Assembly: GCA_016931595.1 (NCBI GenBank)
Contig: JAFGEN010000354.1
Span: 1 to 50,420 of the forward strand
Reading direction: 5' to 3'
Source of the DNA: Candidatus Aminicenantes bacterium
GTDB lineage: Bacteria > Acidobacteriota > Aminicenantia > Aminicenantales > UBA4085
Length of the DNA stretch: 50,420 nucleotides
Part shown: piece by piece, positions 14,213 to 49,321 of the stretch
Position numbering within the stretch: the stretch's first letter is position 1
Layout: every line of letters starts with the position of its first letter
Position numbers and translations under genes: made by a program
Notes under the pieces: model-generated
The model's database searches: none
Seen by the model: the letters and a program-made list of their open reading frames with translations, nothing else
Told to the model about the DNA's origin: nothing

Positions 14213-15118
14213 ACCGGGCCGCGATGAGGCGGCCGCAAGAGCCTTTACCCGACTGTCCACCGCCGTCTGCATCAGGAACAGGGCGGCCATCGCCCCGTTC
14301 AAGACGACGATCATCGCCCAGAAATACAGGTCGAGCCGACGGGCGAACAAGGCGGCGATCAGCAGGACCGCCTGAGTTGAAGACCCGAGGAACGTCCAGA
14401 GCCGCATCGGCAGGCGGTTGATCCGCATGAAGAGGCCGGCGTCGACCGATCCGAGGGCCATCGGATCCCGGCTGATTTTCATCTGGAAGGCCGTGTATCC
14501 GAGATAAAGGCGGATGAATCCGCGCCGGAATTTTTGTCCGCCCCGGCGCTTGAGCTGGACATATTCCCGCCGGAACGCATTCCGGTCATCGACCTGGGCG
14601 GACCTGGCCCCGTGGATGTAGGCCAGGTAGCGGTTCCGGTAATAATCGAAGACGACCGAATGGATGATGTTGCTGGCCGCCGCGGCCAGGACGATCAACC
14701 AGCCCCGGAGCGGGTCCGGGCCGGCGCTCATGAAGCCGAAGCCCAGGCCCAGGTAGACCGAAATGCCCACGAAGTAGTCGATCGACCCGTCGATCACCCG
14801 GCCCATGTGCGTCCCGTTTTTCTTCAGCCTGGCCAGCTGACCATCGGCGCAGTCGACGACGACGGACAGGAAGAGCAGGACGGCTCCCGCCGCGGCCGAG
14901 CCCCAGCCACGTGTGGCGAGGAGAAATCCGCCCGAGATCCCCAGAATCATCGAGAAAATGGAAAGGTGGTTGGGGGTGAAGCTGGTCCGGAAGATCGCCT
15001 TGACCAGGAGAAAGGCCAGCGGGCGGAAGACGAACAGGTCGGCCCATTCTTCGACATCCGGACGTTTGAGGGACCGGAAATACTCCAGGTAATAGTCGCG
15101 GGGCAGGGCCATCGTCAT
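14204..15118 (-). CDS. CDP-alcohol phosphotransferase family membrane protein
   Basis: TPNHLS and the signature DCADGQLAR...G-RVIDGSID (DxxDGxxAR...GxxxDxxxD); multiple TM helices; 4-bp overlap with the upstream fusion gene. Confidence 0.9.
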   Translation of the reverse strand: MTMALPRDYYLEYFRSLKRPDVEEWADLFVFRPLAFLLVKAIFRTSFTPNHLSIFSMILGISGGFLLATRGWGSAAAGAVLLFLSVVVDCADGQLARLKKNGTHMGRVIDGSIDYFVGISVYLGLGFGFMSAGPDPLRGWLIVLAAAASNIIHSVVFDYYRNRYLAYIHGARSAQVDDRNAFRREYVQLKRRGGQKFRRGFIRLYLGYTAFQMKISRDPMALGSVDAGLFMRINRLPMRLWTFLGSSTQAVLLIAALFARRLDLYFWAMIVVLNGAMAALFLMQTAVDSRVKALAAASSRPGSQ

Positions 15119-16932
15119 GCGCGGATCAGCGCCCGGAGGGCGGCCAGCAGTTGATCATCGTCGGCCTGGTCGCGGACCGTCAGCCGGACGAAGGGCCGGC
15201 CGCTAAAGCCGAGCTTGCCCGAAGCGTCCTTGATCAGGATGTCGAACTCGTTGAGCAGGATTTCTGACAATCCGGCCGGGGTCCAGGGTGGAAGTATTTC
15301 GCAGAGAACGTAATTGGCGTGAGACGGCAGGGCGCGGAGATACGGGATGTCCCGGAGTCCCAGGATGAACCGTTCCCGCTCGAGGACGATCTGGCGGCAG
15401 GCCGAACGGAAATCATTCCGGTGCTTGTCGATGACTTGGAGGAAATGCTCGGCGGGCGAGTTGATGTTCCAGATCGAGACTTCATTCCTGATGCGCCGGA
15501 GAAGGTCCAAGTCGGAAGAGGCGATGATTCCCAGGCGAAGTCCCGGCACGCCGTAGGATTTGCTGATGCTCTTGACCGCCGTGAGATTGGGCAGGCGGTT
15601 GAGCAGGTCGGGCTCGATCAGGGAATGGTCGTCCGAGCCGTCTGCGAAATCCAGGAACGATTCATCATAGATCAGCCGGATCTTCTTCTCGGCCAGGCCT
15701 TCGGCCAAGCGGACGGCATCCTGCCGGGGAATGAAGTTACCCGATGGATTGTCGGGATTGATGAGGATGAGGGAGGAGACCTGTTCCCTGGAACAAAAAT
15801 CCAGAAGATCGTCGGCGGTATAGCGGAAGTCGGGACGGGAAGGCGCAAACGGCTTGATGTTCTCCGGTCCGGCGCAGGCCCGGTATTCGTCGAACGTCGG
15901 GACCGGGATCCCGACCGGACCCTCGTCCCCCCGGAAGAGCGCCTTGATCAGCTCGCTGGCGCCGTTTCCGACCAGGATATGCTCGGGAGAGATCTCGAAC
16001 ATCTTGGCCGCCAGAAGATTCTGCACGTTCTGGCCCGAGGGATAATTGGCCACCAGCGTCGGAAAGCTCCGGGCCATCTCGGCGAACATCGCCGGCGTCG
16101 GGAAATAGGGATTGACGAGATAGCAGTAGTCCTTGAGCTTCGGGAACCGCCAGTACCCTCCGTAGCGGGCATGGAGGGCCTTGACCTTGGGTTCCCCCTT
16201 GGCGAAGAGGGCATGGGCGATATCCAGGTCCTGGAGATCGTCGATCTCGTACCAGAGGCGGCCGCTGACGTCCAGGGCCTTGAGCGCCCCGCGGTCGATG
16301 AAGGTCAACAGCTTGAAGACTTCCTCGTAATATTCGTTCAAGCCCTTGGCCTTGATGTAGACATCCAGGAAGGGGAAAAACTTGTCCCGGCAGAAGGCCC
16401 GGGAGAGCTTGTAGATGTTGACCGTCTTGTAATATTGGGCCAGTTCGGACTCGACCATCTCCTTCTTCCCAAGGAAGCAGGTGATGTCGTGGTCCTCCCC
16501 CAACCGGGTCACCGTCCCGTCCATCCAGGACTCGAACCGGGCGACGACGGCCACGTTCGGAGAGGGGTGGAGGACGGAGTCCCGGATGATGGCCGGCTCG
16601 AAGATCAGGTCGCTTTCCAGAAGGATCGAGTCATCCTCCTCCATGGCTTCGCGGGCCAGGAACAGCGAATAGATATTGTTCGTCCGGGCGTAATCGGGGT
16701 TGTGGACGTAGGAAACGGAAATCCCGGAGTAGGACGGACCCAGAACCTCCTGGAATTCGTCCGCCCCGTGGCCGGTGACAATCACGGCTTTCCGGATACC
16801 CTGGGCTGCCAGCGCATCCAGGGCGTATTCGATCAGACGTTTCCCGTCGATTTTCACCATGCACTTGGTCGAGTTTCGGGTCAATTCGCCCAGCCGCTTG
16901 CCCATACCGGCGGCCAGAATAATGGCTTGCAT
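15115..16932 (-). CDS. Fusion of a LicC-like NTP (cytidylyl)transferase and a PLP-dependent class I/II (HisC/CobD-like) enzyme
   Basis: N-terminal ILAAGMGKRL...TKCM...TNNIYSL...ESDLIF...WYEIDD; C-terminal GNGASELI, NPDNPSG, DESF, KSISKSYGVPGLRLG (PLP lysine). Confidence 0.88.
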   Translation of the reverse strand: MQAIILAAGMGKRLGELTRNSTKCMVKIDGKRLIEYALDALAAQGIRKAVIVTGHGADEFQEVLGPSYSGISVSYVHNPDYARTNNIYSLFLAREAMEEDDSILLESDLIFEPAIIRDSVLHPSPNVAVVARFESWMDGTVTRLGEDHDITCFLGKKEMVESELAQYYKTVNIYKLSRAFCRDKFFPFLDVYIKAKGLNEYYEEVFKLLTFIDRGALKALDVSGRLWYEIDDLQDLDIAHALFAKGEPKVKALHARYGGYWRFPKLKDYCYLVNPYFPTPAMFAEMARSFPTLVANYPSGQNVQNLLAAKMFEISPEHILVGNGASELIKALFRGDEGPVGIPVPTFDEYRACAGPENIKPFAPSRPDFRYTADDLLDFCSREQVSSLILINPDNPSGNFIPRQDAVRLAEGLAEKKIRLIYDESFLDFADGSDDHSLIEPDLLNRLPNLTAVKSISKSYGVPGLRLGIIASSDLDLLRRIRNEVSIWNINSPAEHFLQVIDKHRNDFRSACRQIVLERERFILGLRDIPYLRALPSHANYVLCEILPPWTPAGLSEILLNEFDILIKDASGKLGFSGRPFVRLTVRDQADDDQLLAALRALIRA

Positions 16933-17016: not shown

Positions 17017-18468
17017 TCAATATGCCCGTGCGAAATGGGCCGCGGCCACGGCCGGCTTTCCGCAACAGAGGCAGGGGCCATCCTGGGGGGAGTCGTCTCC
17101 CGGCAGGATGACCCGGATGGTGGCCATCGTCTCGGTCTTGATTTTGTCCTCGCATTCCGCCCCGCCGCACCAGGGACTGACGACGAATCCACGCGACGAT
17201 TCCAGAACCGACTTGAACTCATCGTACGCTTGGACCCGCCGGGTGTTGGCCGTAAGGAAGGTCCCGGCCTGGTCAAAAAGGACCGCCTGGATCTCATCCA
17301 GAAGGGCGGGAACCCGGACGGCCAAATCCGCCAGGGGGACGGCCTGCTTGGTCTTCAAATCCCGGCGGACGCAAACGGCCTGGCCGTTTTTCACGTCGCG
17401 GGGACCGATCTCGATCCGCAGAGGGATGCCGCGCATCTCATATTCTGAGAATTTCCAGCCGGGGGTGGCTTCCTCCCGGGCATCAAGCTGAACCCGGACC
17501 CCGGCCTTCCTCAAGGACTCGGCCGCGGCCTGGGCCGCCGGTAGGACCGTCGTCTTCCAGTCTCCGAACGGGATCGGGATGATGACAACCTGGACCGGGG
17601 CGATCCGCGGCGGGAACCGGAGCCCGGAATCGTCGCCGTGGACCATGATCAAGGCCCCGATCGTCCGGGTGGTCATTCCCCAGGACGTCTGCCAGACGTA
17701 CTGGAGGGTCTGGCTCTGATCCTCGAACTTGATGTCGAACGCCCTTGAGAAGTGCTGGCCGAGGTTGTGGGACGTCCCCATCTGGAGGGCCTTGCCGTCG
17801 GACATGAGCGCCTCGATGGCATAGGTCATCTGGGCTCCGGCGAACTTTTCCCGCGGCGTCTTGTGCCCGGCCAGCACCGGGATGGCCAGCTCCGTTTCGC
17901 AGAACTCCTTGTACATCGTCAGGATGGATAGGGTTTCCACCTCGGCTTCTTCGGCCGTGGCGTGGCAGGTGTGACCTTCCTGCCAGAGGAATTCCGTCGT
18001 CCTGAGGAAGGGCCGGGTGACCTTTTCCCATCGGACGATGTTGGCCCACTGGTTGATCAGGACGGGCAGGTCCCGCCAAGATTTGATCCATTTCGAATAC
18101 ATCGGCCCGATGACGGCTTCCGAGGTCGGACGGACGGCCAGCCGCTCCTCGAGCTCTTCCTTCCCTCCGACCGTGACCCAGGCGACCTCGGGGGCGAATC
18201 CCTCGACGTGTTCGGCTTCCTTCTTGAGGAAGCTCTCCGGAATGAATAGGGGGAAATAAGCGTTGACGTGGCCCAGGGCCTTGATCCGCCGGTCCAGCCT
18301 TTGCTGGATATTCTCCCAGACGGCATAGCCATACGGACGAATGACCATCATCCCCTTCATCGGGGTGTAGTCGGCCAGCTCGGCCTTTTGAACGATTTCC
18401 CCGTACCATCGGGAAAAATCTTCGGTTTTCGGAGTGATCTGCTTCACAAGGCGTTCGTTCGCGCTCAC
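17017..18468 (-). CDS. proS: Proline--tRNA ligase, archaeal/eukaryote-type (no INS domain)
   Basis: YFPLFIP, EAEHVEGFAPE, RPTSE, QWANIVRWE, FLRTTEFLWQEGHT, GTSHNLGQHF, C-terminal Cys cluster and ARAY end; GTG start. Confidence 0.98.
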   Translation of the reverse strand: MSANERLVKQITPKTEDFSRWYGEIVQKAELADYTPMKGMMVIRPYGYAVWENIQQRLDRRIKALGHVNAYFPLFIPESFLKKEAEHVEGFAPEVAWVTVGGKEELEERLAVRPTSEAVIGPMYSKWIKSWRDLPVLINQWANIVRWEKVTRPFLRTTEFLWQEGHTCHATAEEAEVETLSILTMYKEFCETELAIPVLAGHKTPREKFAGAQMTYAIEALMSDGKALQMGTSHNLGQHFSRAFDIKFEDQSQTLQYVWQTSWGMTTRTIGALIMVHGDDSGLRFPPRIAPVQVVIIPIPFGDWKTTVLPAAQAAAESLRKAGVRVQLDAREEATPGWKFSEYEMRGIPLRIEIGPRDVKNGQAVCVRRDLKTKQAVPLADLAVRVPALLDEIQAVLFDQAGTFLTANTRRVQAYDEFKSVLESSRGFVVSPWCGGAECEDKIKTETMATIRVILPGDDSPQDGPCLCCGKPAVAAAHFARAY

Positions 18469-18582
18469 GTTCGTCTCCCGGGGAAAAATGCTGGTTCATT
18501 CTAGCTTCGGTCCGGCGTCCTGTCAAATGGCAATCAAAAGGGAAAAGAGACGACGGCGGAAGGTGAGCGCCCGGACGGAGGA

Positions 18583-18641
18583 TATCACCCTTTTTATCAC
18601 CCTCAGGGGTGATTGACCCCCTTGACGCTTCCCGCGAAAAT
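18583..18641 (+). promoter_or_regulatory. Putative regulator-binding site and promoter upstream of the PilZ/LuxR cluster
   Basis: TATCACCCT direct repeat (18583, 18595); palindrome ATCACCC-TCAG-GGGTGAT (18596-18613) abutting TTGACC (18613-18618); possible weak -10 GAAAAT 17 bp downstream. Confidence 0.5.
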
Positions 18642-18676: not shown

Positions 18677-19039
18677 ATGGTGACAAAGATTCCGGCGGAC
18701 AACATGGACCTTCTGGGGCCGAAGAAGCAGGGCTTCACCTTCCCCCTGCCCACCCAGGTCGAAGGGCTGAACGCCAAGGGCCGGGACTTCTCCGAGGAAA
18801 CCGTCCTGACCTTCATCAGCCACGAGGGTTCCTCGTTCTGCCTGAAAAATCCAATCCAGGTCGGTTCCCGATTGAAAATGATCGTCGACCTCCCGGAACG
18901 GCTCGCCGACAATGTCCCCCTTAAGCTCGTCATCCGCGGCCGGGTGGCCAAAATCGAGGCCGTCTCGGGCGGCAACAGCGCCCAGCGGGTGACGCTCAAA
19001 TTCGACAGCAAATACATCATCAAGCCCGAGGACGCCTAA
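18677..19039 (+). CDS. PilZ-fold protein lacking the RxxxR motif
   Basis: Aligns by eye with 20199-20591 (LP-x-V-x-G...G..F.E.T...IS..G..F.L...G..L...LP...I.G.V); the RxxxR position reads KKQGF. Confidence 0.7.
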   Translation: MVTKIPADNMDLLGPKKQGFTFPLPTQVEGLNAKGRDFSEETVLTFISHEGSSFCLKNPIQVGSRLKMIVDLPERLADNVPLKLVIRGRVAKIEAVSGGNSAQRVTLKFDSKYIIKPEDA

Positions 19040-19040
19040 G

Positions 19041-19385
19041 ATGCCTGAAGACGGAGAAAAACCCGGCTCCCGGACATTCGAGATCGCCCTGCCCGCCCTG
19101 ATCCAAGGTTTAGATAAGGGCGAGCGCGAATTCGCCGAACAGACCGTGGTGTCAACCATCAACGCGGAGGAAGCCGTCGTCCTCCTTCGGTCGAAAGTCA
19201 AGCCGGGAGCCAAGATCCGCCTCTCGCTCCACATCCCCCGGACGTTCTTCCTGGAAAAGCCCCTGGACCTCAATCTGACCGGGACGATTTCGGAGATCCC
19301 CGCGCCGGAGAAGGGAGTCCGGGCGAAAGCGGCGGTCCGCGTCCGCCTGGACGATCGGTTCAGCATTCTCCCCGCCTCAGTATAA
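19041..19385 (+). CDS. PilZ-fold protein, degenerate in both c-di-GMP motifs
   Basis: Paralog of the neighbours (LPALIQGLD...EFAEQTVVSTINAEEA...PGAKIRLSLHIP); both RxxxR and [DN]xSxxG are lost. Confidence 0.65.
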   Translation: MPEDGEKPGSRTFEIALPALIQGLDKGEREFAEQTVVSTINAEEAVVLLRSKVKPGAKIRLSLHIPRTFFLEKPLDLNLTGTISEIPAPEKGVRAKAAVRVRLDDRFSILPASV

Positions 19386-19414
19386 GGAATCTCCGCGGCC
19401 GGTCCCCCTCTTTC

Positions 19415-19443
19415 TTGACTTCCTCATCTTCGTCGGATAGGAT
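19415..19443 (+). promoter_or_regulatory. Sigma70-type promoter for the LuxR regulator
   Basis: TTGACT (19415-19420), 17 bp spacer, TAGGAT (19438-19443). Confidence 0.6.
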
Positions 19444-19491
19444 TACCTCGAAATCGATGAACCCTCATTCTACGATTCAGGGGTCAACCCT

Positions 19492-20181
19492 ATGACAAAA
19501 AAAACCGCTCCGGCCCAAGCCGCCAAGAAGACCTCCGTTCTCCTGTATTGCCCCTCGGACCTGATCCTCGCCGGGATCCTGAAGTCCCTGGAAACCGACG
19601 AGCAGATCGAGGTTGTGGCGGTCGAGAAGGGAACCATCGATTCCTTCATGGGGGCCATCCGCCGCCTTCGTCCCCAGGTCATCCTGTTCACCAGCGCCGA
19701 AGCGATGCCCAACATGCGGGAGATCTGCAAGGCCATCCGGGACATCTCCCGGGACCAGATCAAGACGCAAATGCTGCTGCTGGGCAACATCCCCTCCCAT
19801 GAGGAAATCGTCAGCCTGATCAATGTCGGGGCCCGCGGTTATTTCGACCTGAACGACCCGTCCGGCCAACTGCCCGAGGCGGTCCGGGTTCTGGCCAAGG
19901 GCGAGATCTGGCTGCCCAGGGACAAGATGTCCAGCATCATGGATCGGATCATTTCCGTCGTCGGCCGGGAGATCAAGGAAAAGACGCTGGACCAGCTGAC
20001 GCCGACCGAGTTCCAGGTCCTCAAGCTCATCGGCCAGGGCAAGTCCAACGACGAGATCGCCACGACCCTGTTCATCAGCAAGAATACCGTCCGCTCCCAC
20101 ATTAAAAGCATCTACGCCAAACTCGACACCCACAGCCGTCTTCAGCTCGCTCTTTACGCGATCAATTCGGCTCTCTTCTGA
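19492..20181 (+). CDS. LuxR/NarL-family regulator with an atypical receiver (CsgD/VpsT-like)
   Basis: C-terminal LTPTEFQVLKLIGQGKSNDEIATTLFISKNTVRSHIKSIYAKL HTH; receiver lacks the acidic pocket (LLYCP), the phospho-Asp (VILFT) and the Lys (GYFDL); GEIWLPR motif. Confidence 0.9.
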   Translation: MTKKTAPAQAAKKTSVLLYCPSDLILAGILKSLETDEQIEVVAVEKGTIDSFMGAIRRLRPQVILFTSAEAMPNMREICKAIRDISRDQIKTQMLLLGNIPSHEEIVSLINVGARGYFDLNDPSGQLPEAVRVLAKGEIWLPRDKMSSIMDRIISVVGREIKEKTLDQLTPTEFQVLKLIGQGKSNDEIATTLFISKNTVRSHIKSIYAKLDTHSRLQLALYAINSALF

Positions 20182-20198
20182 TCACGAGGGAAAGGATC

Positions 20199-20591
20199 AT
20201 GGCCATGCGTACGAAATCCTCCGCCAAAGCCGCTGCCTCCCTCGTCTCCGCTCAAATCGCCCGGAGAAGAGAAGGCCGCTTCGAGATGCCCCTGTCGGCC
20301 GACGTCCGGGGGTCCCTTCCCCGCGGATCGACCTTCCAGGAAACGGCGAAAATCCGGAACATCAGCTCGACCGGCGCCTACCTCTACCTCCAGGCGGCGG
20401 TCATCGTCGGAACCAAGCTGACGCTGGCCATTTCGCTGCCGGCAAGAGCCACCGGCGGAAAGCCTCTCCGGTTGAAAATAGCCGGTTCCGTCGTCAGGAT
20501 GGAAAAGGCCCGCAAGACCTCCCGCAAGCTGGGCGTCGCCGTCCGGTTCGCCAGGGAATACCGGTTCGTCGCCGCGCCGACGCGGTCCTGA
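20199..20591 (+). CDS. PilZ domain protein with canonical c-di-GMP-binding motifs
   Basis: RREGR (RxxxR), NISSTG ([DN]xSxxG), GSVVR...GVAVRF. Confidence 0.85.
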   Translation: MAMRTKSSAKAAASLVSAQIARRREGRFEMPLSADVRGSLPRGSTFQETAKIRNISSTGAYLYLQAAVIVGTKLTLAISLPARATGGKPLRLKIAGSVVRMEKARKTSRKLGVAVRFAREYRFVAAPTRS

Positions 20592-20601
20592 CCCGGTTCG
20601 A

Positions 20602-21237
20602 ATGCTCCGCGTCGCCCTGACCGGAGGCATTGCCTCGGGGAAGTCTGTTGTCGCCGAAATCTTCCGACAACGCGGATTCCATCTTTTCTCGGCCGACCGC
20701 GCCGGCCGCGACTTCATGGCTCCCGGCGGCCCGGCATATTCCCCGATCGTCGAAAAATTCGGGCCGTCCATTCTGGCCGGCAACCAAACCCCCGGGGCCC
20801 CCATCGACCGGTCCGCCCTGGCCGCGATCCTCTTCTCCGACTCCGAAGCCAAGCGGTTCGTAGAGGGCGTGGTTCATCCGCTGACGATCGCAGCCATGAA
20901 GGCGGCGGCGGCCCGCCTGGAAGCCGAAGGCCGGACGGACGTCTTCGTGGCCGAATCCGCCCTGACCGTCGAAGCCGGCCTGGTCGAGGCTTTTGACCGG
21001 ATCATCGTCGTCCACTGCGACACGGAGACCCAAGTCCGCCGGCTGATGGACCGCGACGGAATCGGGCGCGAAGCGGCCCTGGCCCGGATCCGGACCCAGA
21101 AGCCGGTCGAGGAAAAGCTCCGGTTCGCCGATTTTGCCGTCGATTCGTCTGGGGAGATGGAAGAAACGATCGCCCGGGCTGAGGCCGTCGCCTCGCTTCT
21201 CTTGGATGAAGCCCGGGCCGGCCGGTTCAACCCTTAA
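20602..21237 (+). CDS. coaE: Dephospho-CoA kinase
   Basis: ALTGGIASGKS P-loop, IDRSALA...F, VHP, RLMDRDG...RIRTQ. Confidence 0.95.
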   Translation: MLRVALTGGIASGKSVVAEIFRQRGFHLFSADRAGRDFMAPGGPAYSPIVEKFGPSILAGNQTPGAPIDRSALAAILFSDSEAKRFVEGVVHPLTIAAMKAAAARLEAEGRTDVFVAESALTVEAGLVEAFDRIIVVHCDTETQVRRLMDRDGIGREAALARIRTQKPVEEKLRFADFAVDSSGEMEETIARAEAVASLLLDEARAGRFNP

Positions 21238-22138
21238 GGGCGGCGGCCAGGAGCGGAATCAGGATTTCGTGGGGTCCGACGAAGTAATATCCCTTTCCCT
21301 TTTTACCAAGCGGCCTCCGGACGACGTTTTCGGCCGGCCGGTAATGCTTGATGAAATCGAACACCGCCGTGGAGAATCCGTCCAGGCGGCCGCCCCCGTT
21401 GCGGATCAGGGAAACGGCCTTGAGGAAGACCTCGGGCAGAATGACGGCCGAACCGACATTGAGGAATATCCCTCCGCCGTCCAGCCGCCGGACTTCCCCG
21501 CAGAAAAGATGAAAATCGCGGAGCGATGCGGCCCCGATCGCTTCGCCGCTCGCCTCCGGATGCATGTGGATGATGTCGGTCCCGATCGCCACATGGACGG
21601 TGACTGGAATCCCCAGCTGGTGGGCGGCACCGAGAAGGCTCCACTTTTTGTAGGGGAAGCGGGAGCGGGCGATCATCCGGCCGACGGATTCGCCCAAGCC
21701 CCGGCCCTCGGCCGCACCCTCGACGATCGCCCGGTTCAGGAAAGTTCCCGTCTCGGCGGCCATCCCGAACCGCCCGTCCCGGATTTGGGCGGCGACGTCC
21801 TCGGAGGTCTGCCCGGCAAAGGCCAGCTCGAAGTCATGGATGATCCCGGCTCCGTTGAGCGCCAGTCCGCCGACCCACCCGTCCTTCATCAAATCGATGA
21901 GGACAGGGGACAGCCCGGCTTTGATGACGTGGGCTCCCATCGCCCACAAGATCGGTTTTTCCAACTTACGGGCTGTCCGAAGGAGCCCGGCGAATTCCTT
22001 GAAATCCCGCGCGGAGAGAAGACCGGGAAGTCCGGCCAGAAAATCGGAAAAGCTCCCGCCCCGGCGGGGCGGTTTGGCGAAATCGTCCAGGGTTACCTTG
22101 CTCGGCCGGGAGGCCAGCGGATAGGTCCGGATTTTCAT
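21227..22138 (-). CDS. Deoxyhypusine-synthase-like protein of unknown function
   Basis: GAHVIKAGL, NGAGIIHDFE, TSEDV, FGMAAET, PVTVHVAIGTDIIH, GSAVILPEVFLK, GPHE; resembles the DHS-like fold family. Confidence 0.7.
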   Translation of the reverse strand: MKIRTYPLASRPSKVTLDDFAKPPRRGGSFSDFLAGLPGLLSARDFKEFAGLLRTARKLEKPILWAMGAHVIKAGLSPVLIDLMKDGWVGGLALNGAGIIHDFELAFAGQTSEDVAAQIRDGRFGMAAETGTFLNRAIVEGAAEGRGLGESVGRMIARSRFPYKKWSLLGAAHQLGIPVTVHVAIGTDIIHMHPEASGEAIGAASLRDFHLFCGEVRRLDGGGIFLNVGSAVILPEVFLKAVSLIRNGGGRLDGFSTAVFDFIKHYRPAENVVRRPLGKKGKGYYFVGPHEILIPLLAAALKG

Positions 22139-22416
22139 TGGGCTTTGGGCCCGAGGCTTTTCAGCTCCTGGCCGCAGCGGAACTTGATGCGTTTCCCCTG
22201 GGTGATATGAATCTGTTTCTGGCGGCGAATGTCGCGGCCATACCCGGTTTTCTTGGCCACAACCTTGAAGCTGCCGAAGCCCCGGATCTCGACTTTATGG
22301 CTTGCAGTCAGGGCTTCCTTCAAGGCCTCGAGGATTGCTTCCACGATTTCCAAGGACCTGGCCGCATTGAAATCCGTCTTCTTTTCAATCGCCAGGACAA
22401 TGTCGTTTTTTATCAT
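22135..22416 (-). CDS. Integration host factor/HU family DNA-binding protein
   Basis: MIKNDIV...KVEIRGFGSFKV...GR...IKF; 93 aa, basic. Confidence 0.9.
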   Translation of the reverse strand: MIKNDIVLAIEKKTDFNAARSLEIVEAILEALKEALTASHKVEIRGFGSFKVVAKKTGYGRDIRRQKQIHITQGKRIKFRCGQELKSLGPKAQ

Positions 22417-22581
22417 GGAGGGCTCCTCGAGAGACTAAAGATTAATTTTTCGCCGGGGAAATGTCAAGCTGTTCGATTGACTTACCGGAAGGTCCTTTTT
22501 ATAATGAAATCAACATGAAGAGGGCGGAGCGGGACGGGTTTGTTCCAGCCCGGCCGCAGTCCGCCCGGAGGACGTGAGAGC

Positions 22582-23211
22582 ATGTCGAAATCCGATGAGT
22601 TCCGCGAGATGCAGATTTCCAGCGGGCAGCTGGCGGCGGTGATCCTCGTCCTCCTGGCCCTTTGCGTCTTCATTTTTTACCTTGGGACGCGAGTTGGAAT
22701 GAAGAAGGCCGCCGCCTCTTCTCCCCCGGCTGCAACAAAGACCCAGGCCAAAGCCGACCCCTCGACGAAGTTCGCGCCGTCCATCTCCGAGCTGGCCGGC
22801 CAAATCCAGAAGCCGGCCGGCGCCGAAACCGCCAAACCGCAGACGCCGGTCCCGGAGAAATCGAAGACAACCGAATCAAAACCTTCCGTCAAAACGGAAC
22901 AGAATCCGGCCGCCGCGGTTAAAAAGCCGGCGGCCGCCGAACCCAAGCCGAAGACAGTCTCCCCTTCAGGGACCTACTACATTCAAGCCGGCGCCCTGGA
23001 TACGCGGGAGAAAGGGGAAACCCTGGCCCGGAGGATCGAAGGCCTGAGTTTCCGGGCCATCGTCCTGAATCCGCTGGCCGGCGACAGGAAACCGGTCTAC
23101 CGAGTTCGGGTCGGCCCCTACGAGACCAAAGAATCCGCAGAAACCGCCAGGGAAAAGCTGGCCGAAGCGCTCAAAAGAAAAACCACTGATTTCTTCCTCG
23201 TCAAGGGTTGA
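22582..23211 (+). CDS. SPOR domain cell-division protein (DedD/FtsN-like)
   Basis: N-terminal TM helix, Pro/Lys/Ala-rich linker, YYIQAGA...YRVRVGPY SPOR domain; start at ATG 22582 after GGAGG. Confidence 0.88.
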   Translation: MSKSDEFREMQISSGQLAAVILVLLALCVFIFYLGTRVGMKKAAASSPPAATKTQAKADPSTKFAPSISELAGQIQKPAGAETAKPQTPVPEKSKTTESKPSVKTEQNPAAAVKKPAAAEPKPKTVSPSGTYYIQAGALDTREKGETLARRIEGLSFRAIVLNPLAGDRKPVYRVRVGPYETKESAETAREKLAEALKRKTTDFFLVKG

Positions 23212-35913: not shown

Positions 35914-36903
35914 ATGTCTCCTCTTCCTTCGGTCCTGATCGCGGAAGACGATCCGATATCCAGTCGGATTCTGGAGAAAAACCTCAGGTCCTGGGGATAT
36001 GAAACGACGGTCGCCCGCAACGGCAACCAGGCATGGGAAACCCTCCGAGGCCCGACGACCAGGCTGGCTCTTCTCGACTGGATGATGCCGGGAGCCGAAG
36101 GCCCCGAACTGTGCCGGCGGATCCGGGCGCTGAACAAGCCGGGTTATACCTACATCATCCTCCTGACCTCCCGCGACAGCGTCCAGGACATCATCGACGG
36201 CCTGGAAGCGGGAGCCGACGACTTCATGACCAAACCGGTGAATTTCGCCGAGCTGAGGGCGCGGCTTCAAACGGGAGGACGGATCATCGCCCTGGAGGAC
36301 AAGCTCCTCGATTCTCAGAAACGGCTGTTTGAACTGGCCACCCGGGACAGTTTGACCGGGATCTGGAACCGTGCGACAATCCTCCGTTTTCTTTCGGATG
36401 AAATGGCCCACTGCCGGCGGGGCGGCGACTATTCCCTCAGCACCATTCTCATCGACGTCGACTATTTTAAAAAAATCAACGATACCCATGGGCACCTGGT
36501 CGGCGACAAGGTCCTCAGCAAGGTCACGTCTTGCCTGGAAAAACACATTCGTCCGTACGACAAGGTCGGCCGGTACGGCGGAGACGAATTCCTGATCGTT
36601 TTACCAAACTGCAGCCTGTATCACGTCGCCGTCGTCGCCGAGCGACTCCGGACGGCCGTGGAAAAACTGAAAATCCGGGTCGAGGGGGGGGTCCTGAACC
36701 TCTCCCTGTCCCTGGGCTGTGCCTCATCGGAATGCTTCCGCCGCGCAGCCGGTGAGCGGATGATCAAGGAAAGCGACCGGGCTCTCTACAAAGCCAAGCA
36801 AGAAGGACGCAACCGCGTCGGGCTCTGCTCAGAGCTCAAAGGCCCGAAAGACAACCGGAAAGAAAAGAAGAAAGGAGCCCGCCGTGTCATCGAATCCAAG
36901 TGA
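35914..36903 (+). CDS. Response-regulator diguanylate cyclase (REC-GGDEF)
   Basis: Intact receiver (IAEDD, LLDWMMP, LLTS, TKP); DSLTG, DVDYFKKINDTHGHLVGD, I-site RPYD, A-site GGDEF. Confidence 0.95.
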   Translation: MSPLPSVLIAEDDPISSRILEKNLRSWGYETTVARNGNQAWETLRGPTTRLALLDWMMPGAEGPELCRRIRALNKPGYTYIILLTSRDSVQDIIDGLEAGADDFMTKPVNFAELRARLQTGGRIIALEDKLLDSQKRLFELATRDSLTGIWNRATILRFLSDEMAHCRRGGDYSLSTILIDVDYFKKINDTHGHLVGDKVLSKVTSCLEKHIRPYDKVGRYGGDEFLIVLPNCSLYHVAVVAERLRTAVEKLKIRVEGGVLNLSLSLGCASSECFRRAAGERMIKESDRALYKAKQEGRNRVGLCSELKGPKDNRKEKKKGARRVIESK

Positions 36904-47466: not shown

Positions 47467-48747
47467 TCAGACGACCGTTCCAGACGGCAGAACGGCGTTT
47501 TTCGGAACGACAATGATCCCGTCGACGAGGCAGACATCCTCGCCGATGCGGTCGCGGACGCCGGCGGCGTTGATCAGCTTGACTCCGTCGCCGATTCGGG
47601 CGTTCTTGTCGATGATCGCGTTGCGGATTTCGCAGTTGCGGCCCACGCCGACGGCCGGAAGGCCCCGGGCGGCCGAACTCCGGAGGTCTTCGGCCGATTC
47701 ATAGAAATCCGCGCCCATCATCACTGTCCGGAGCAGCTGGGTCCCCTCTCCGATCCGCGACCGGATCCCGATAATCGACTGCCGGATATAGGCCCGGTTG
47801 ATAATGCTTCCCTCGCAGAGGATGGACTCGTGGACGTCGGCGTCGAGAATCTTGGACCCGGGCAGGAAGCGGGGCAGACTGAAGACGGGCTTGTCCTCGT
47901 CGTAGAAGTTGAACCGCGGCAGAGGATGGGTCAGGCCGATATTGGCCTCGAAAAAGTTCGGGATCGTCCCGATATCCTCCCAGTAGCCGTCGAAGAAATG
48001 GGCGAACACCCTCTTGTCCTGGATGGCCCGGGGGATGATCTGCCGGCCGAAATCCTCGTCCGTTGTGCTTTCCAGGACATCCTTCAGGACCTTCCAGTTG
48101 AACAGGTAGATGCCCATCGAGGCGGTGTGGGCCCGGCCGCGGGCGTCGACGCCGTTGGCCTCAAAAACCTCCGGGTCGACGGCCATCCCGTCGATCGCGG
48201 CGTCGTCCTTGGGCTTTTCCTTGAATTCGACGATCCGGTTGCTCGCGTCGACTTTCAGGACACCCAGGCTGGGAACATCCTTGCGCGCGGCTGGAACGAC
48301 CGATATCGTGATGTCCGCGCCGGCTTTCTCGTGGGCCTCGACGAATTTCCGGTAATCCATCCGGTAGAGGTGGTCGCCCGACAGGATCAGGATGAGATCG
48401 CCCGAGCCCTCGATAGTCGAGAGGTTGTGACGGACGGCATCGGCCGTTCCCTGGAACCAGCCCCGGTTCTCCAGCGTCTGCTTGGCCGCCAGGATGGTGA
48501 TGTAGTCCTTGTGGAACTGGTCGAACCGGTAGGACGTGAAGATATGGCGATGGATGGATTCGCTGGCGAATTGGGTCAGGATGAAGATCCGGCGGTATCC
48601 GGAATGGATGCAATTGGAAATGGGAATGTCGATCAGGCGGAATCGCCCCCCGATCGGAACGGCCGGTTTGCTCCGGATCTTGGTCAAGGGATACAGGCGG
48701 CTCCCCTGTCCGCCGGCCAGGATGAGTGTTGAGACGCGGGCGGCCAT
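47467..48747 (-). CDS. glgC: Glucose-1-phosphate adenylyltransferase
   Basis: LAGGQGSRLYPLT..RSKPAVP, WFQGTADAVR, LSGDHLYRMDY, FKEKP, ASMGIY, DFG, YWEDIGT, IIDKNARIG. Confidence 0.97.
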   Translation of the reverse strand: MAARVSTLILAGGQGSRLYPLTKIRSKPAVPIGGRFRLIDIPISNCIHSGYRRIFILTQFASESIHRHIFTSYRFDQFHKDYITILAAKQTLENRGWFQGTADAVRHNLSTIEGSGDLILILSGDHLYRMDYRKFVEAHEKAGADITISVVPAARKDVPSLGVLKVDASNRIVEFKEKPKDDAAIDGMAVDPEVFEANGVDARGRAHTASMGIYLFNWKVLKDVLESTTDEDFGRQIIPRAIQDKRVFAHFFDGYWEDIGTIPNFFEANIGLTHPLPRFNFYDEDKPVFSLPRFLPGSKILDADVHESILCEGSIINRAYIRQSIIGIRSRIGEGTQLLRTVMMGADFYESAEDLRSSAARGLPAVGVGRNCEIRNAIIDKNARIGDGVKLINAAGVRDRIGEDVCLVDGIIVVPKNAVLPSGTVV

Positions 48748-48874
48748 GCGCTCCTCCCTTCCCGCCCATTATATGCGAAATCGCCGGCAAAGGACATGGC
48801 CGGGCTTTACATTTATTCCGGATTGGGCTATCTTATGCTCCAGAATCGGTGAAACGAACCGCGGGGAGGCGTTC

Positions 48875-49321
48875 ATGTCCGAAGACGCACTGGAGAAACG
48901 AACCTGCGCCCGCTTCAGGATCCCGGGAGCAACAGTCGCCTTCAGGAGAGAAAAGGGGCTTTTTAAAAAAAGCTCGTACGGGGCCGAATTTCTTCCGATG
49001 CTGGACATCAGCCGGGGAGGGATCCGCTTTCTCTCCCAGGAGATGCTCGACCTCGACACCCGCATCCACCTCAGCGTCCAGGTCCCCGGCGACACGGCCC
49101 CCCTCAAGATGGAAGGCATCGTCCGGTGGTTCGCCACCAATCCCGGCCAAAGCTATAAATACCAACTCGGCGTCCAGTTCCTGCCGTACGGCGAAAAAAA
49201 GGACATGAACTACCCCGGCAACCTCGTCAAGATCATTTCCTACGAACAGAAATTCATGGATGAGACAACGATCATCAAGGACGAAACCGGGGGGCGCCGC
49301 GACGGCACCTTCGAAGTCTAG
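48875..49321 (+). CDS. PilZ domain protein with canonical motifs
   Basis: RTCAR (RxxxR), DISRGG, GIVRW...LGVQF; GGAGG RBS; promoter TTTACA-17-TATCTT (48806-48834). Confidence 0.85.
   Translation: MSEDALEKRTCARFRIPGATVAFRREKGLFKKSSYGAEFLPMLDISRGGIRFLSQEMLDLDTRIHLSVQVPGDTAPLKMEGIVRWFATNPGQSYKYQLGVQFLPYGEKKDMNYPGNLVKIISYEQKFMDETTIIKDETGGRRDGTFEV

Follow-up and report, generated by a model that had tools for sequence, protein, structure and literature searches.

Can a transcription factor that has lost the residues needed for phosphorylation come under the control of cyclic diguanylate (c-di-GMP), and if it can, does it bind the messenger itself or receive the signal through a partner? The question is raised by four genes lying between proS and coaE in a 50,420-nucleotide (nt) stretch of DNA from Candidatus Aminicenantes bacterium (GCA_016931595.1, contig JAFGEN010000354.1, positions 1 to 50,420, forward strand), referred to here, at its full length, as the window. 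Aminicenantes (candidate division OP8) are uncultured bacteria that are widespread in sediments. An initial annotation proposed that three of the genes encode PilZ-fold proteins, P1, P2 and P4, that the fourth encodes a LuxR-type regulator, REG, and that together they form a phosphorylation-independent switch gated by c-di-GMP. Our analysis confirms a real, conserved and order-specific module. It argues against direct binding of c-di-GMP by REG and leads us to favour, tentatively, a relay in which P4 carries the signal to REG.

The four open reading frames (ORFs) fill the proS-coaE interval in one orientation, exactly where the annotation had placed them (ORF list of the window, with Pfam for the neighbouring genes):

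18677-19039, + strand: P1, 120 amino acids (aa), degenerate single-domain PilZ-fold protein with xSxxG only and no RxxxR (ORF, hhalign)
19041-19385, + strand: P2, 114 aa, single-domain PilZ-fold protein with neither c-di-GMP motif (hhalign, AlphaFold2 model and Foldseek)
19492-20181, + strand: REG, 229 aa, LuxR/NarL-family transcription factor with pseudo-receiver, WLPR, helix 143-163 and GerE helix-turn-helix (HTH) (Pfam, PDB alignment, model)
19909-19920, + strand: W140-L-P-R143 of REG, proline variant of the VpsT W[F/L/M][T/S]R motif (alignment to 3kln)
20199-20591, + strand: P4, 130 aa, canonical single-domain PilZ, likely c-di-GMP receptor (Pfam, motifs)

A conserved module confined to one order

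Loci encoding a REG relative numbered 229 in a pattern scan that took one genome per species. Orthologues of REG, 67-98% identical and in two cases broken across contig ends, were present in 39 of 41 Aminicenantales genomes; the two genomes that had none are 81% and 60% complete. Within a phylum sample of 201 genomes, which includes three unpublished ones (G064, G089, G192) on which no claim depends, an orthologue was present in three only, all from Aminicenantales, and the remaining 15 matches were ordinary regulators with 26-37% identity. Fourteen genomes from other orders of the same class gave no REG match at E 1e-20. A scan of 1.84 billion representatives returned one full-length REG cluster, at 74% identity, together with fragments, and beyond that cluster generic NarL regulators with about 30-35% identity. 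REG orthologues, then, were found only in the order Aminicenantales.

Wherever the contig allows, all 37 loci of the order share the gene order divergent proS, P1, P2 (not at every locus), REG, P4, coaE. P4 lies downstream of REG in 36 of the 37, and coaE follows P4 in 36 of 37, the exception (L006) being a contig end. A second set of 80 named loci, overlapping the first in species, contained 68 with enough flanking sequence; these had a P4-like gene downstream in 68 cases, coaE in 67, two upstream PilZ genes in 65 and divergent proS in 61. The synteny survey thereby extends the arrangement described for the window to the order as a whole. Among the public metagenome-assembled genome records that carry the locus (L038-L117), many bear the title "uncultured Eubacteriales bacterium" and one is called "Candidatus Desulfaltia sp.", which looks like wrong taxonomic labelling.

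The flanking genes and promoter-like sites are:

17017-18468, - strand: proS, archaeal/eukaryote-type prolyl-tRNA synthetase, divergent neighbour (Pfam ProRS domains, conserved position)
18526-18498, - strand: proS promoter-like site (consensus scan)
19415-19443, + strand: REG promoter-like site, TTGACT, 17 base pairs (bp), TAGGAT (consensus scan)
20602-21237, + strand: coaE, dephospho-CoA kinase, 10 bp after P4 (Pfam CoaE, E 8.5e-44)

The gap between REG and P4 measures -1 to 31 bp in 34 of 36 loci, spread over nine families, and the two exceptions are start-codon or ORF-calling artefacts. Upstream of REG the gap is 89-587 bp (36 loci), and the REG promoter, TTGAC with TA..AT, is kept in 16 of 16 aligned family-level intergenic regions. 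Because REG has its own conserved promoter-like site and is tightly spaced with P4, the locus reads as two units, P1-P2 and REG-P4-coaE, with coaE probably the last gene of the second.

Two short contigs identical to the window (19437-19584 and 21025-21300) occur in one sediment metatranscriptome run, and the first of them starts inside the predicted -10 of the REG promoter; two other runs of that study had no contigs matching the locus. As evidence from RNA these contigs were set aside, since they cannot show transcription, transcript starts or operon structure.

The genes might also be neighbours that share no mechanism. REG would then be an orphan controlled by its level, or by a ligand or redox cue at its pseudo-receiver, the PilZ proteins would act on other targets, and the proS-coaE region would simply be stable. 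Synteny is no weaker for proS and coaE than for the PilZ genes, and part of it may be that of a stable stretch of chromosome. P2 has been lost in five lineages (one upstream PilZ gene instead of two in L032-L036, 5 of 37 loci) and is dispensable there. The REG-P4 spacing, kept through nine families, speaks against this explanation, which we regard as doubtful once the evidence from the PilZ subfamily, the operator and the predicted complex, given below, is added.

Three PilZ-fold proteins with graded motifs

The three small proteins are homologous PilZ-fold proteins. BLASTP aligned P1 with P2 at 27% identity (E 1e-14), P1 with P4 at 28% (E 1e-13) and P2 with P4 at 30% (E 3e-8); profile-profile comparison to P4 with hhalign gave a probability of 99.7% for P1 (E 4e-26) and 99.4% for P2 (E 7e-22). 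The similarity that the initial annotation had seen among the three is borne out by these values, and the PilZ fold that it had assigned to P1 and P2 withstood the profile and structure searches. P4 itself matches Pfam PilZ (PF07238) at E 3.1e-7, with 31.1 bits against a gathering cut-off of 22.5 bits. The window copies of P1 and P2 had no Pfam or NCBIfam match, and a PDB sequence search with P4 gave no match at E up to 1. Among orthologues, Pfam PilZ matched 5 of 32 P1 sequences (best E 8.8e-5) and 0 of 30 P2 sequences. P1 is the best conserved of the three, its orthologues being 38-93% identical to the window copy.

Structures were modelled for P2 and REG, and the fold of P1 rests on homology. 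The AlphaFold2 model of P2 is a six-stranded barrel with a mean predicted local distance difference test score (pLDDT) of 83.7. Compared with the PDB by Foldseek, it matched best the PilZ domain of Alg44 (4xrn, 4rt1; E about 4e-4, TM about 0.6); 5vx6 was also among the top PilZ matches, and further matches included MotI/DgrA, VCA0042, BcsA and MapZ.

The c-di-GMP motifs form a gradient, as first described, and the gradient holds in the orthologues. P4 has both RxxxR (R23-x-x-x-R27) and [D/N]xSxxG (N54-I-S-S-T-G59); across 34 orthologues R22, R23, E25, R27, S56 and G59 are invariant and N54 nearly so, giving the motifs RRREWR and (N/D)ISSxGAY. P1 keeps (F/Y)ISHxG across its orthologues and lacks RxxxR, with KKQGF in the window, GF in the consensus and no arginines before the first strand. 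In P2 neither motif is intact: the consensus KRERxF has the last Arg replaced, and TINAEE in the window, S(I/L)SAxE in the consensus, lacks the Ser-x-x-Gly. Since the canonical motifs are intact in P4 and degenerate in P1 and P2, we infer c-di-GMP binding for P4 and its absence for P1 and P2.

The Xanthomonas PilZ protein that works with FimX is reportedly an example of a non-canonical adaptor. More generally, PMC3131395 describes a non-canonical PilZ protein without c-di-GMP motifs as thought to be a protein adaptor. P1 and P2 resemble such adaptors in having the fold without the motifs; unlike them, they are paralogues of a canonical PilZ protein encoded at the same locus.

Searched over the whole genome, a P4-type PilZ profile matched P4 and P1 alone, and this restriction of the subfamily to one locus argues against neighbours that share no mechanism. 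A Pfam PilZ scan of the same genome gave 5 other matches and missed P4 itself; it therefore under-counts weak PilZ domains. Elsewhere in the window, the gene at 48536-49321 (+) encodes 261 aa that end in a PilZ domain (E 3.7e-9).

A receiver without its phosphorylation site

REG carries a Pfam GerE HTH (E 1.9e-19) and does not match Pfam Response_reg. It aligns over its full length with LiaR (5hev, E 1.5e-21), VraR, DevR and NarL, and over residues 114-226 only with VpsT (3kln, E 1e-13). The model (pLDDT 77.4) shows a (beta-alpha)5 domain, a long helix at 143-163 and the HTH. Foldseek ranked LiaR, VraR, RcsB and NarL first, with LiaR/VraR at rank 1 and VpsT at rank 18. REG has the domain order of VpsT and a helix at the corresponding place; the linkers of the NarL family are helical too, and LiaR and VraR match better. 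By sequence as by fold, the resemblance of REG to LiaR/VraR exceeds that to VpsT. Database entries for REG read "NarL family response regulator LiaR", and those for P1 "hypothetical protein".

Unlike these response regulators, which are its best full-length matches, REG has all five residues of a NarL/FixJ phosphorylation site replaced. In the alignment to LiaR (5hev) the acidic pair is represented by C20 (24 of 25 orthologues) and P21 (23 of 25), the Thr/Ser position by G98 (25 of 25) and the Lys position by L120 (23 of 25). The phospho-Asp position, 67, is T67 in the window and A, T, S or F in the 25 orthologues, never D or E. The initial annotation had reported a receiver without acidic pocket, phospho-Asp and Lys; the alignment and the orthologues agree, and add the loss of Thr/Ser. 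To judge from these residues, REG is not phosphorylatable at the usual site. The proS-coaE interval holds no histidine kinase gene.

Three residues in or near the former phospho-acceptor pocket, the invariant C79 and H103 and the nearly invariant C20, might form a metal, redox or ligand site. Such a site is what control of an orphan REG by a ligand or redox cue would call for, and these residues count in favour of that explanation.

Conservation is strongest elsewhere in the protein. Any two of 25 orthologues share at least 90% identity over residues 138-229, the stretch from WLPR through helix and linker to the HTH, and identity in the receiver core falls to 48%. A linker this close to invariance is unusual; it is in keeping with a conserved surface that contacts a protein or a ligand or serves self-association.

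The WLPR motif and direct binding of c-di-GMP

The initial annotation assigned the c-di-GMP site to REG itself, at a WLPR dimer interface like that of VpsT, and left the PilZ proteins only to tune the response. Much about the motif suits this model. W140-L-P-R143 lies where it was described and aligns residue for residue with WLTR of VpsT (3kln); it is invariant in 25 of 25 and in 80 of 80 REG orthologues. REG resembles VpsT (3kln/3klo) in domain order, in the position of the motif and in the long helix after the receiver, and the hydrophobic residue in that helix has counterparts throughout (QstR L137, VpsT I141, REG M150), M150 falling on I141 and, like the Trp and Arg, being invariant. The extreme constraint on the motif region points the same way.

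The difference lies in one residue. The VpsT-type motif is defined as W[F/L/M][T/S]R (PMC6237807); VpsT has WLTR and needs c-di-GMP, whereas REG has Pro at the T/S position. The initial annotation treated this proline as a caveat, and we consider it decisive. V. cholerae QstR carries WLPR rather than WLTR and works at low c-di-GMP; a Pro-to-Thr change was needed to make it c-di-GMP dependent, and its R130A substitution had a modest or mild effect (PMC6237807). V. vulnificus BrpT, which also has WLPR, is described as not depending on c-di-GMP binding (PMC6237807, PMC6113621, PMC13726011), and PMC13726011 sets WLSR/WFSR paralogues apart from a WLPR paralogue. Because the published WLPR regulators act without c-di-GMP, direct gating of REG by c-di-GMP is unlikely. 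The title of Chodur et al. 2017 reportedly says that a proline variant "suppresses dependence on signal-association".

QstR and BrpT, as their published descriptions portray them, are like REG in having a LuxR-type HTH behind a receiver-like domain, in being independent of phosphorylation and in carrying WLPR at the homologous position. They differ from it in host, REG belonging to the Acidobacteriota, and in surroundings: three PilZ genes flank REG, and the same descriptions mention no such flank for QstR or BrpT. QstR, like VpsT, keeps the receiver Asp that REG lacks. The WLPR of REG is possibly convergent with that of the Vibrio VpsT clade.

A second argument comes from the phylum itself. 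W-[V/I]-G-R occupies the position of WLPR in five of the nine best non-orthologous phosphorylatable NarL-type regulators of the phylum, all nine of which have Asp, Thr/Ser and Lys intact wherever the alignment covers them. W..R alone is therefore no sign of c-di-GMP binding, and Trp and Arg at the end of helix 5 are a wider feature of a NarL subgroup. The ordinary NarL-type regulators at L121, L122, L125, L126 and L127, from Acidobacteriota, read GE(Y/F)W(V/I)GR(E/D) at the VpsT-motif position. The closer match of REG to LiaR/VraR than to VpsT, by E-value and by Foldseek rank, also tells against a VpsT-like mechanism.

Of the switch as originally proposed, independence from phosphorylation at the usual site stands. 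Gating by c-di-GMP through WLPR does not stand with it; this is the least likely part of the proposal, and we think it unlikely that REG binds the messenger there.

An operator and a candidate regulon

The proS-P1 intergenic region contains three half-sites abutting a promoter:

18562-18641, + strand: P1-P2 promoter with operator (sequence reading and consensus scan)
18562-18566, + strand: further GGTGA
18585-18590 and 18597-18602, + strand: TCACCC direct half-sites
18607-18612, + strand: inverted GGGTGA half-site, after a 4-bp spacer, abutting the -35
18613-18618, + strand: -35 of the P1-P2 promoter, TTGACC
18636-18641, + strand: -10-like element of the P1-P2 promoter, GAAAAT

The half-site block is almost invariant across the order, and GGGTGATTGAC lies 61-86 nt upstream of the P1 start in 32 of 35 loci. 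Scanned as the composite TCAYC-N5-GGGTGATTGA, the operator was found in 39 of 41 genomes of the order, at 64 sites, against 0 for a reversed-pattern control. Outside the order it occurred in 2 of 198 genomes, with 1 site each, and in 0 of 14 genomes from other orders of the same class. By their coordinates, 35 of the 64 sites lie at the P1 promoter and 29 elsewhere, at one to three other promoters per genome.

Twenty of the 29 extra sites were fetched, the other nine being near contig ends or apparent orthologues of fetched sites. All 20 have a direct half-site about 12 nt upstream, the palindrome and TTGAC, with an ORF on the same strand 22-177 nt downstream. Nine of the 20 precede genes of the type REC...TonB_C (a receiver, REC, plus a TonB C-terminal domain), from six families of the order. 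Other targets were an M4 peptidase, a pilin-like protein with an N-methylation motif, a canonical REC-GerE regulator (L163), a TPR-CHAT protein and several proteins that had no Pfam match. The REC...TonB_C proteins (L147, L148, L150, L153, L154, L156, L161, L165, L166) are 412-741 aa long with the receiver at the N-terminus; TonB_C alone was detected in L153 and L154, and the receiver alone in L161.

The genome to which the window belongs (G000) has two further exact palindromes besides that of the P1 promoter, both kept in the orthologous promoters of four other genomes. One (contig C137, 22861-22880) is the sole other composite in this genome and precedes the gene for a secreted SLT lytic transglycosylase after alaS. 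The other (contig C133, 1199-1214) precedes the gene for a 458-aa protein; this site has a half-site with TTGCCC, a -35-like element about 40 bp downstream of the palindrome. Beside the gene of the 458-aa protein and convergent with it, a 663-aa GAF-GGDEF-PilZ protein, in which a cyclase is fused to its own receptor domain, is encoded on the same contig (L129:2878-4866, -). The best REC...TonB_C match in this genome (contig C292) had no operator within 3 mismatches.

Which protein binds the operator? GerE-type dimers read C-rich inverted heptamers, as at NarL 7-2-7 sites. By a small measure we lean towards REG, because the operator and REG share their phyletic limits, the commonest site (35 of 64) adjoins REG, and an invariant HTH is matched by an invariant GGGTGA half-site. 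The same three facts argue against a binder other than REG, for instance a canonical NarL-type regulator whose regulon would include the P1-P2 operon for reasons unrelated to REG. That alternative is possible rather than probable. One operator site stands before the canonical REC-GerE regulator gene at L163, nine of the 20 fetched sites stand before REC...TonB_C genes, and the promoter of REG itself has no operator, all of which would suit it.

Several points weigh against placing the operator under REG. In the aligned intergenic regions the REG promoter shows no conserved palindrome beyond its -35 and -10, and another order-specific transcription factor could be the binder. The plain palindrome TCACCC-N4-GGGTGA was rejected as a marker of REG, being present in 87 of the 201 phylum genomes, and for a palindrome the reversed pattern is an unfair control. 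The composite was derived from loci within the order, so its informative part is the 29 extra sites, and the related genomes that carry them are not independent.

How the signal might reach REG

The organism can be taken to make c-di-GMP: its genome, 87% complete, has 11 GGDEF matches, one of them in a REC-GGDEF gene of the window. That gene (35914-36903, +) encodes a receiver-GGDEF diguanylate cyclase (GGDEF E 4.4e-44).

We propose that c-di-GMP reaches REG, itself blind to c-di-GMP and to phosphorylation, through the canonical P4; P1 and P2 would be blind paralogues, and their operon would be part of the REG regulon. The module would consist, throughout Aminicenantales, of two transcription units, P1-P2 and REG-P4-coaE. 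Judged by analogy with QstR and BrpT, REG itself probably needs no c-di-GMP and forms dimers through the helix that follows WLPR. P4, whose gene starts 8-31 bp after REG in nearly all genomes, would on binding c-di-GMP change the activity of REG by direct contact; the direction of that change belongs to the model rather than to the data. REG would act at the operator, which has two direct TCACCC half-sites and an inverted one and abuts the -35 of P1-P2 and of other promoters. The relay draws on the canonical P4 with its invariant motifs, the GGDEF proteins of the genome, the tight coupling of REG to P4 and the confinement of the PilZ subfamily to this locus. It draws as well on the constraint from WLPR to the HTH, the WLPR precedents, the operator distribution, a low-scoring complex prediction and a precedent for a PilZ protein acting on a transcription factor. 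We favour it tentatively and place it somewhat short of an even chance.

The precedent is TssZ (PA0012) of P. aeruginosa, a single-domain canonical PilZ adaptor that, according to PMC10912698, binds HinK and, with sensitivity to c-di-GMP, keeps it from binding DNA. Like the proposed P4-REG pair, for which contact is weakly predicted by modelling, it couples a canonical PilZ adaptor to a LuxR-type regulator. The pairs also differ: HinK is of LasR type rather than a pseudo-receiver protein, and the TssZ-HinK system was found by two-hybrid screening rather than by gene linkage and has no degenerate PilZ paralogues.

Prediction of the complex of REG with two c-di-GMP and P4 scored 0.50 (runs 0.61, 0.50 and 0.46), and the best of 3 controls scored 0.02. 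The runs agree in at least 46% of contacts, with partner pLDDT of at least 75. When the method was calibrated, 58 of 80 solved complexes reached the mark, as did 2 of 110 mismatched pairs; our set-up differed from the calibration in using its own alignments and a riding ligand. The prediction was graded as weak support, a small rise in the odds that REG and P4 touch, and with its near-zero controls it counts against neighbours that share no mechanism.

The relay has to be set against several observations besides the conservation of proS and coaE. Scores of 0.60 or less were reached by 7 of the 80 solved complexes and by both of the mismatches that passed, a band in which such predictions are more often wrong than right. 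A PilZ-GerE fusion was not found; the P4 profile, run against longer proteins, gave one 311-aa protein with no recorded Pfam domain, and such emptiness is weak evidence. The c-di-GMP independence of BrpT is taken from three citing papers rather than from the original Chodur 2017 report.

Partners that are not transcription factors are the rule for most characterised single-domain PilZ adaptors, which is a further point for neighbours that share no mechanism. Set against this is the order-specific operator on the P1-P2 promoter. The likelihoods that we attach to the relay through P4, to neighbours without a shared mechanism and to direct binding by REG concern separate mechanistic claims, which are not mutually exclusive.

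A more elaborate form of the relay would give P1 and P2 a function and make the module a feedback switch at the level of proteins. P4 and the decoys P1 and P2 would compete for the WLPR-helix-linker surface of REG, REG would drive P1-P2, and the decoys would set the c-di-GMP threshold at which the regulon switches. REG would then be a master regulator of Aminicenantales, and its threshold-switched regulon would take in the REC...TonB_C envelope proteins, the lytic transglycosylase, the secreted M4 protease and the pilin-like protein. We consider this form quite improbable.

Other genes near the locus

The gene at 15115-16932 (-) encodes a 605-aa protein in which a nucleotidyltransferase (MobA-like / NTP_transferase) is fused to a class I/II aminotransferase. 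A 303-aa ORF at 21227-22138 (-), convergent with coaE, has weak, sub-threshold matches to deoxyhypusine synthase and to the ArgZ C-terminal Rossmann domain. Adjoining it are genes for an HU-type DNA-binding protein (22135-22416, -) and a SPOR-domain protein (22540-23211, +).

Significance

The components of the module are all of known kinds. What is new is their arrangement, a WLPR pseudo-receiver regulator flanked by PilZ paralogues, one of them intact and two degenerate, together with an operator. We found no paper joining Aminicenantes with c-di-GMP. The locus provides a transcription factor that is specific to the order, near-universal within it and mislabelled in databases as a LiaR-type response regulator. 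Beside it stand PilZ paralogues in a natural series, one intact and two degenerate, and the locus adds a sharply defined candidate operator and regulon. Should REG and the PilZ proteins prove to be neighbours without a shared mechanism, the result would still be a useful correction, in that WLPR is not to be read as a c-di-GMP site. If the relay through P4 is true, it offers a testable system of four small soluble proteins and one 60-bp DNA fragment, expressible in E. coli, and it would mean that "c-di-GMP-blind" VpsT-like regulators can regain second-messenger control via a separate adaptor.

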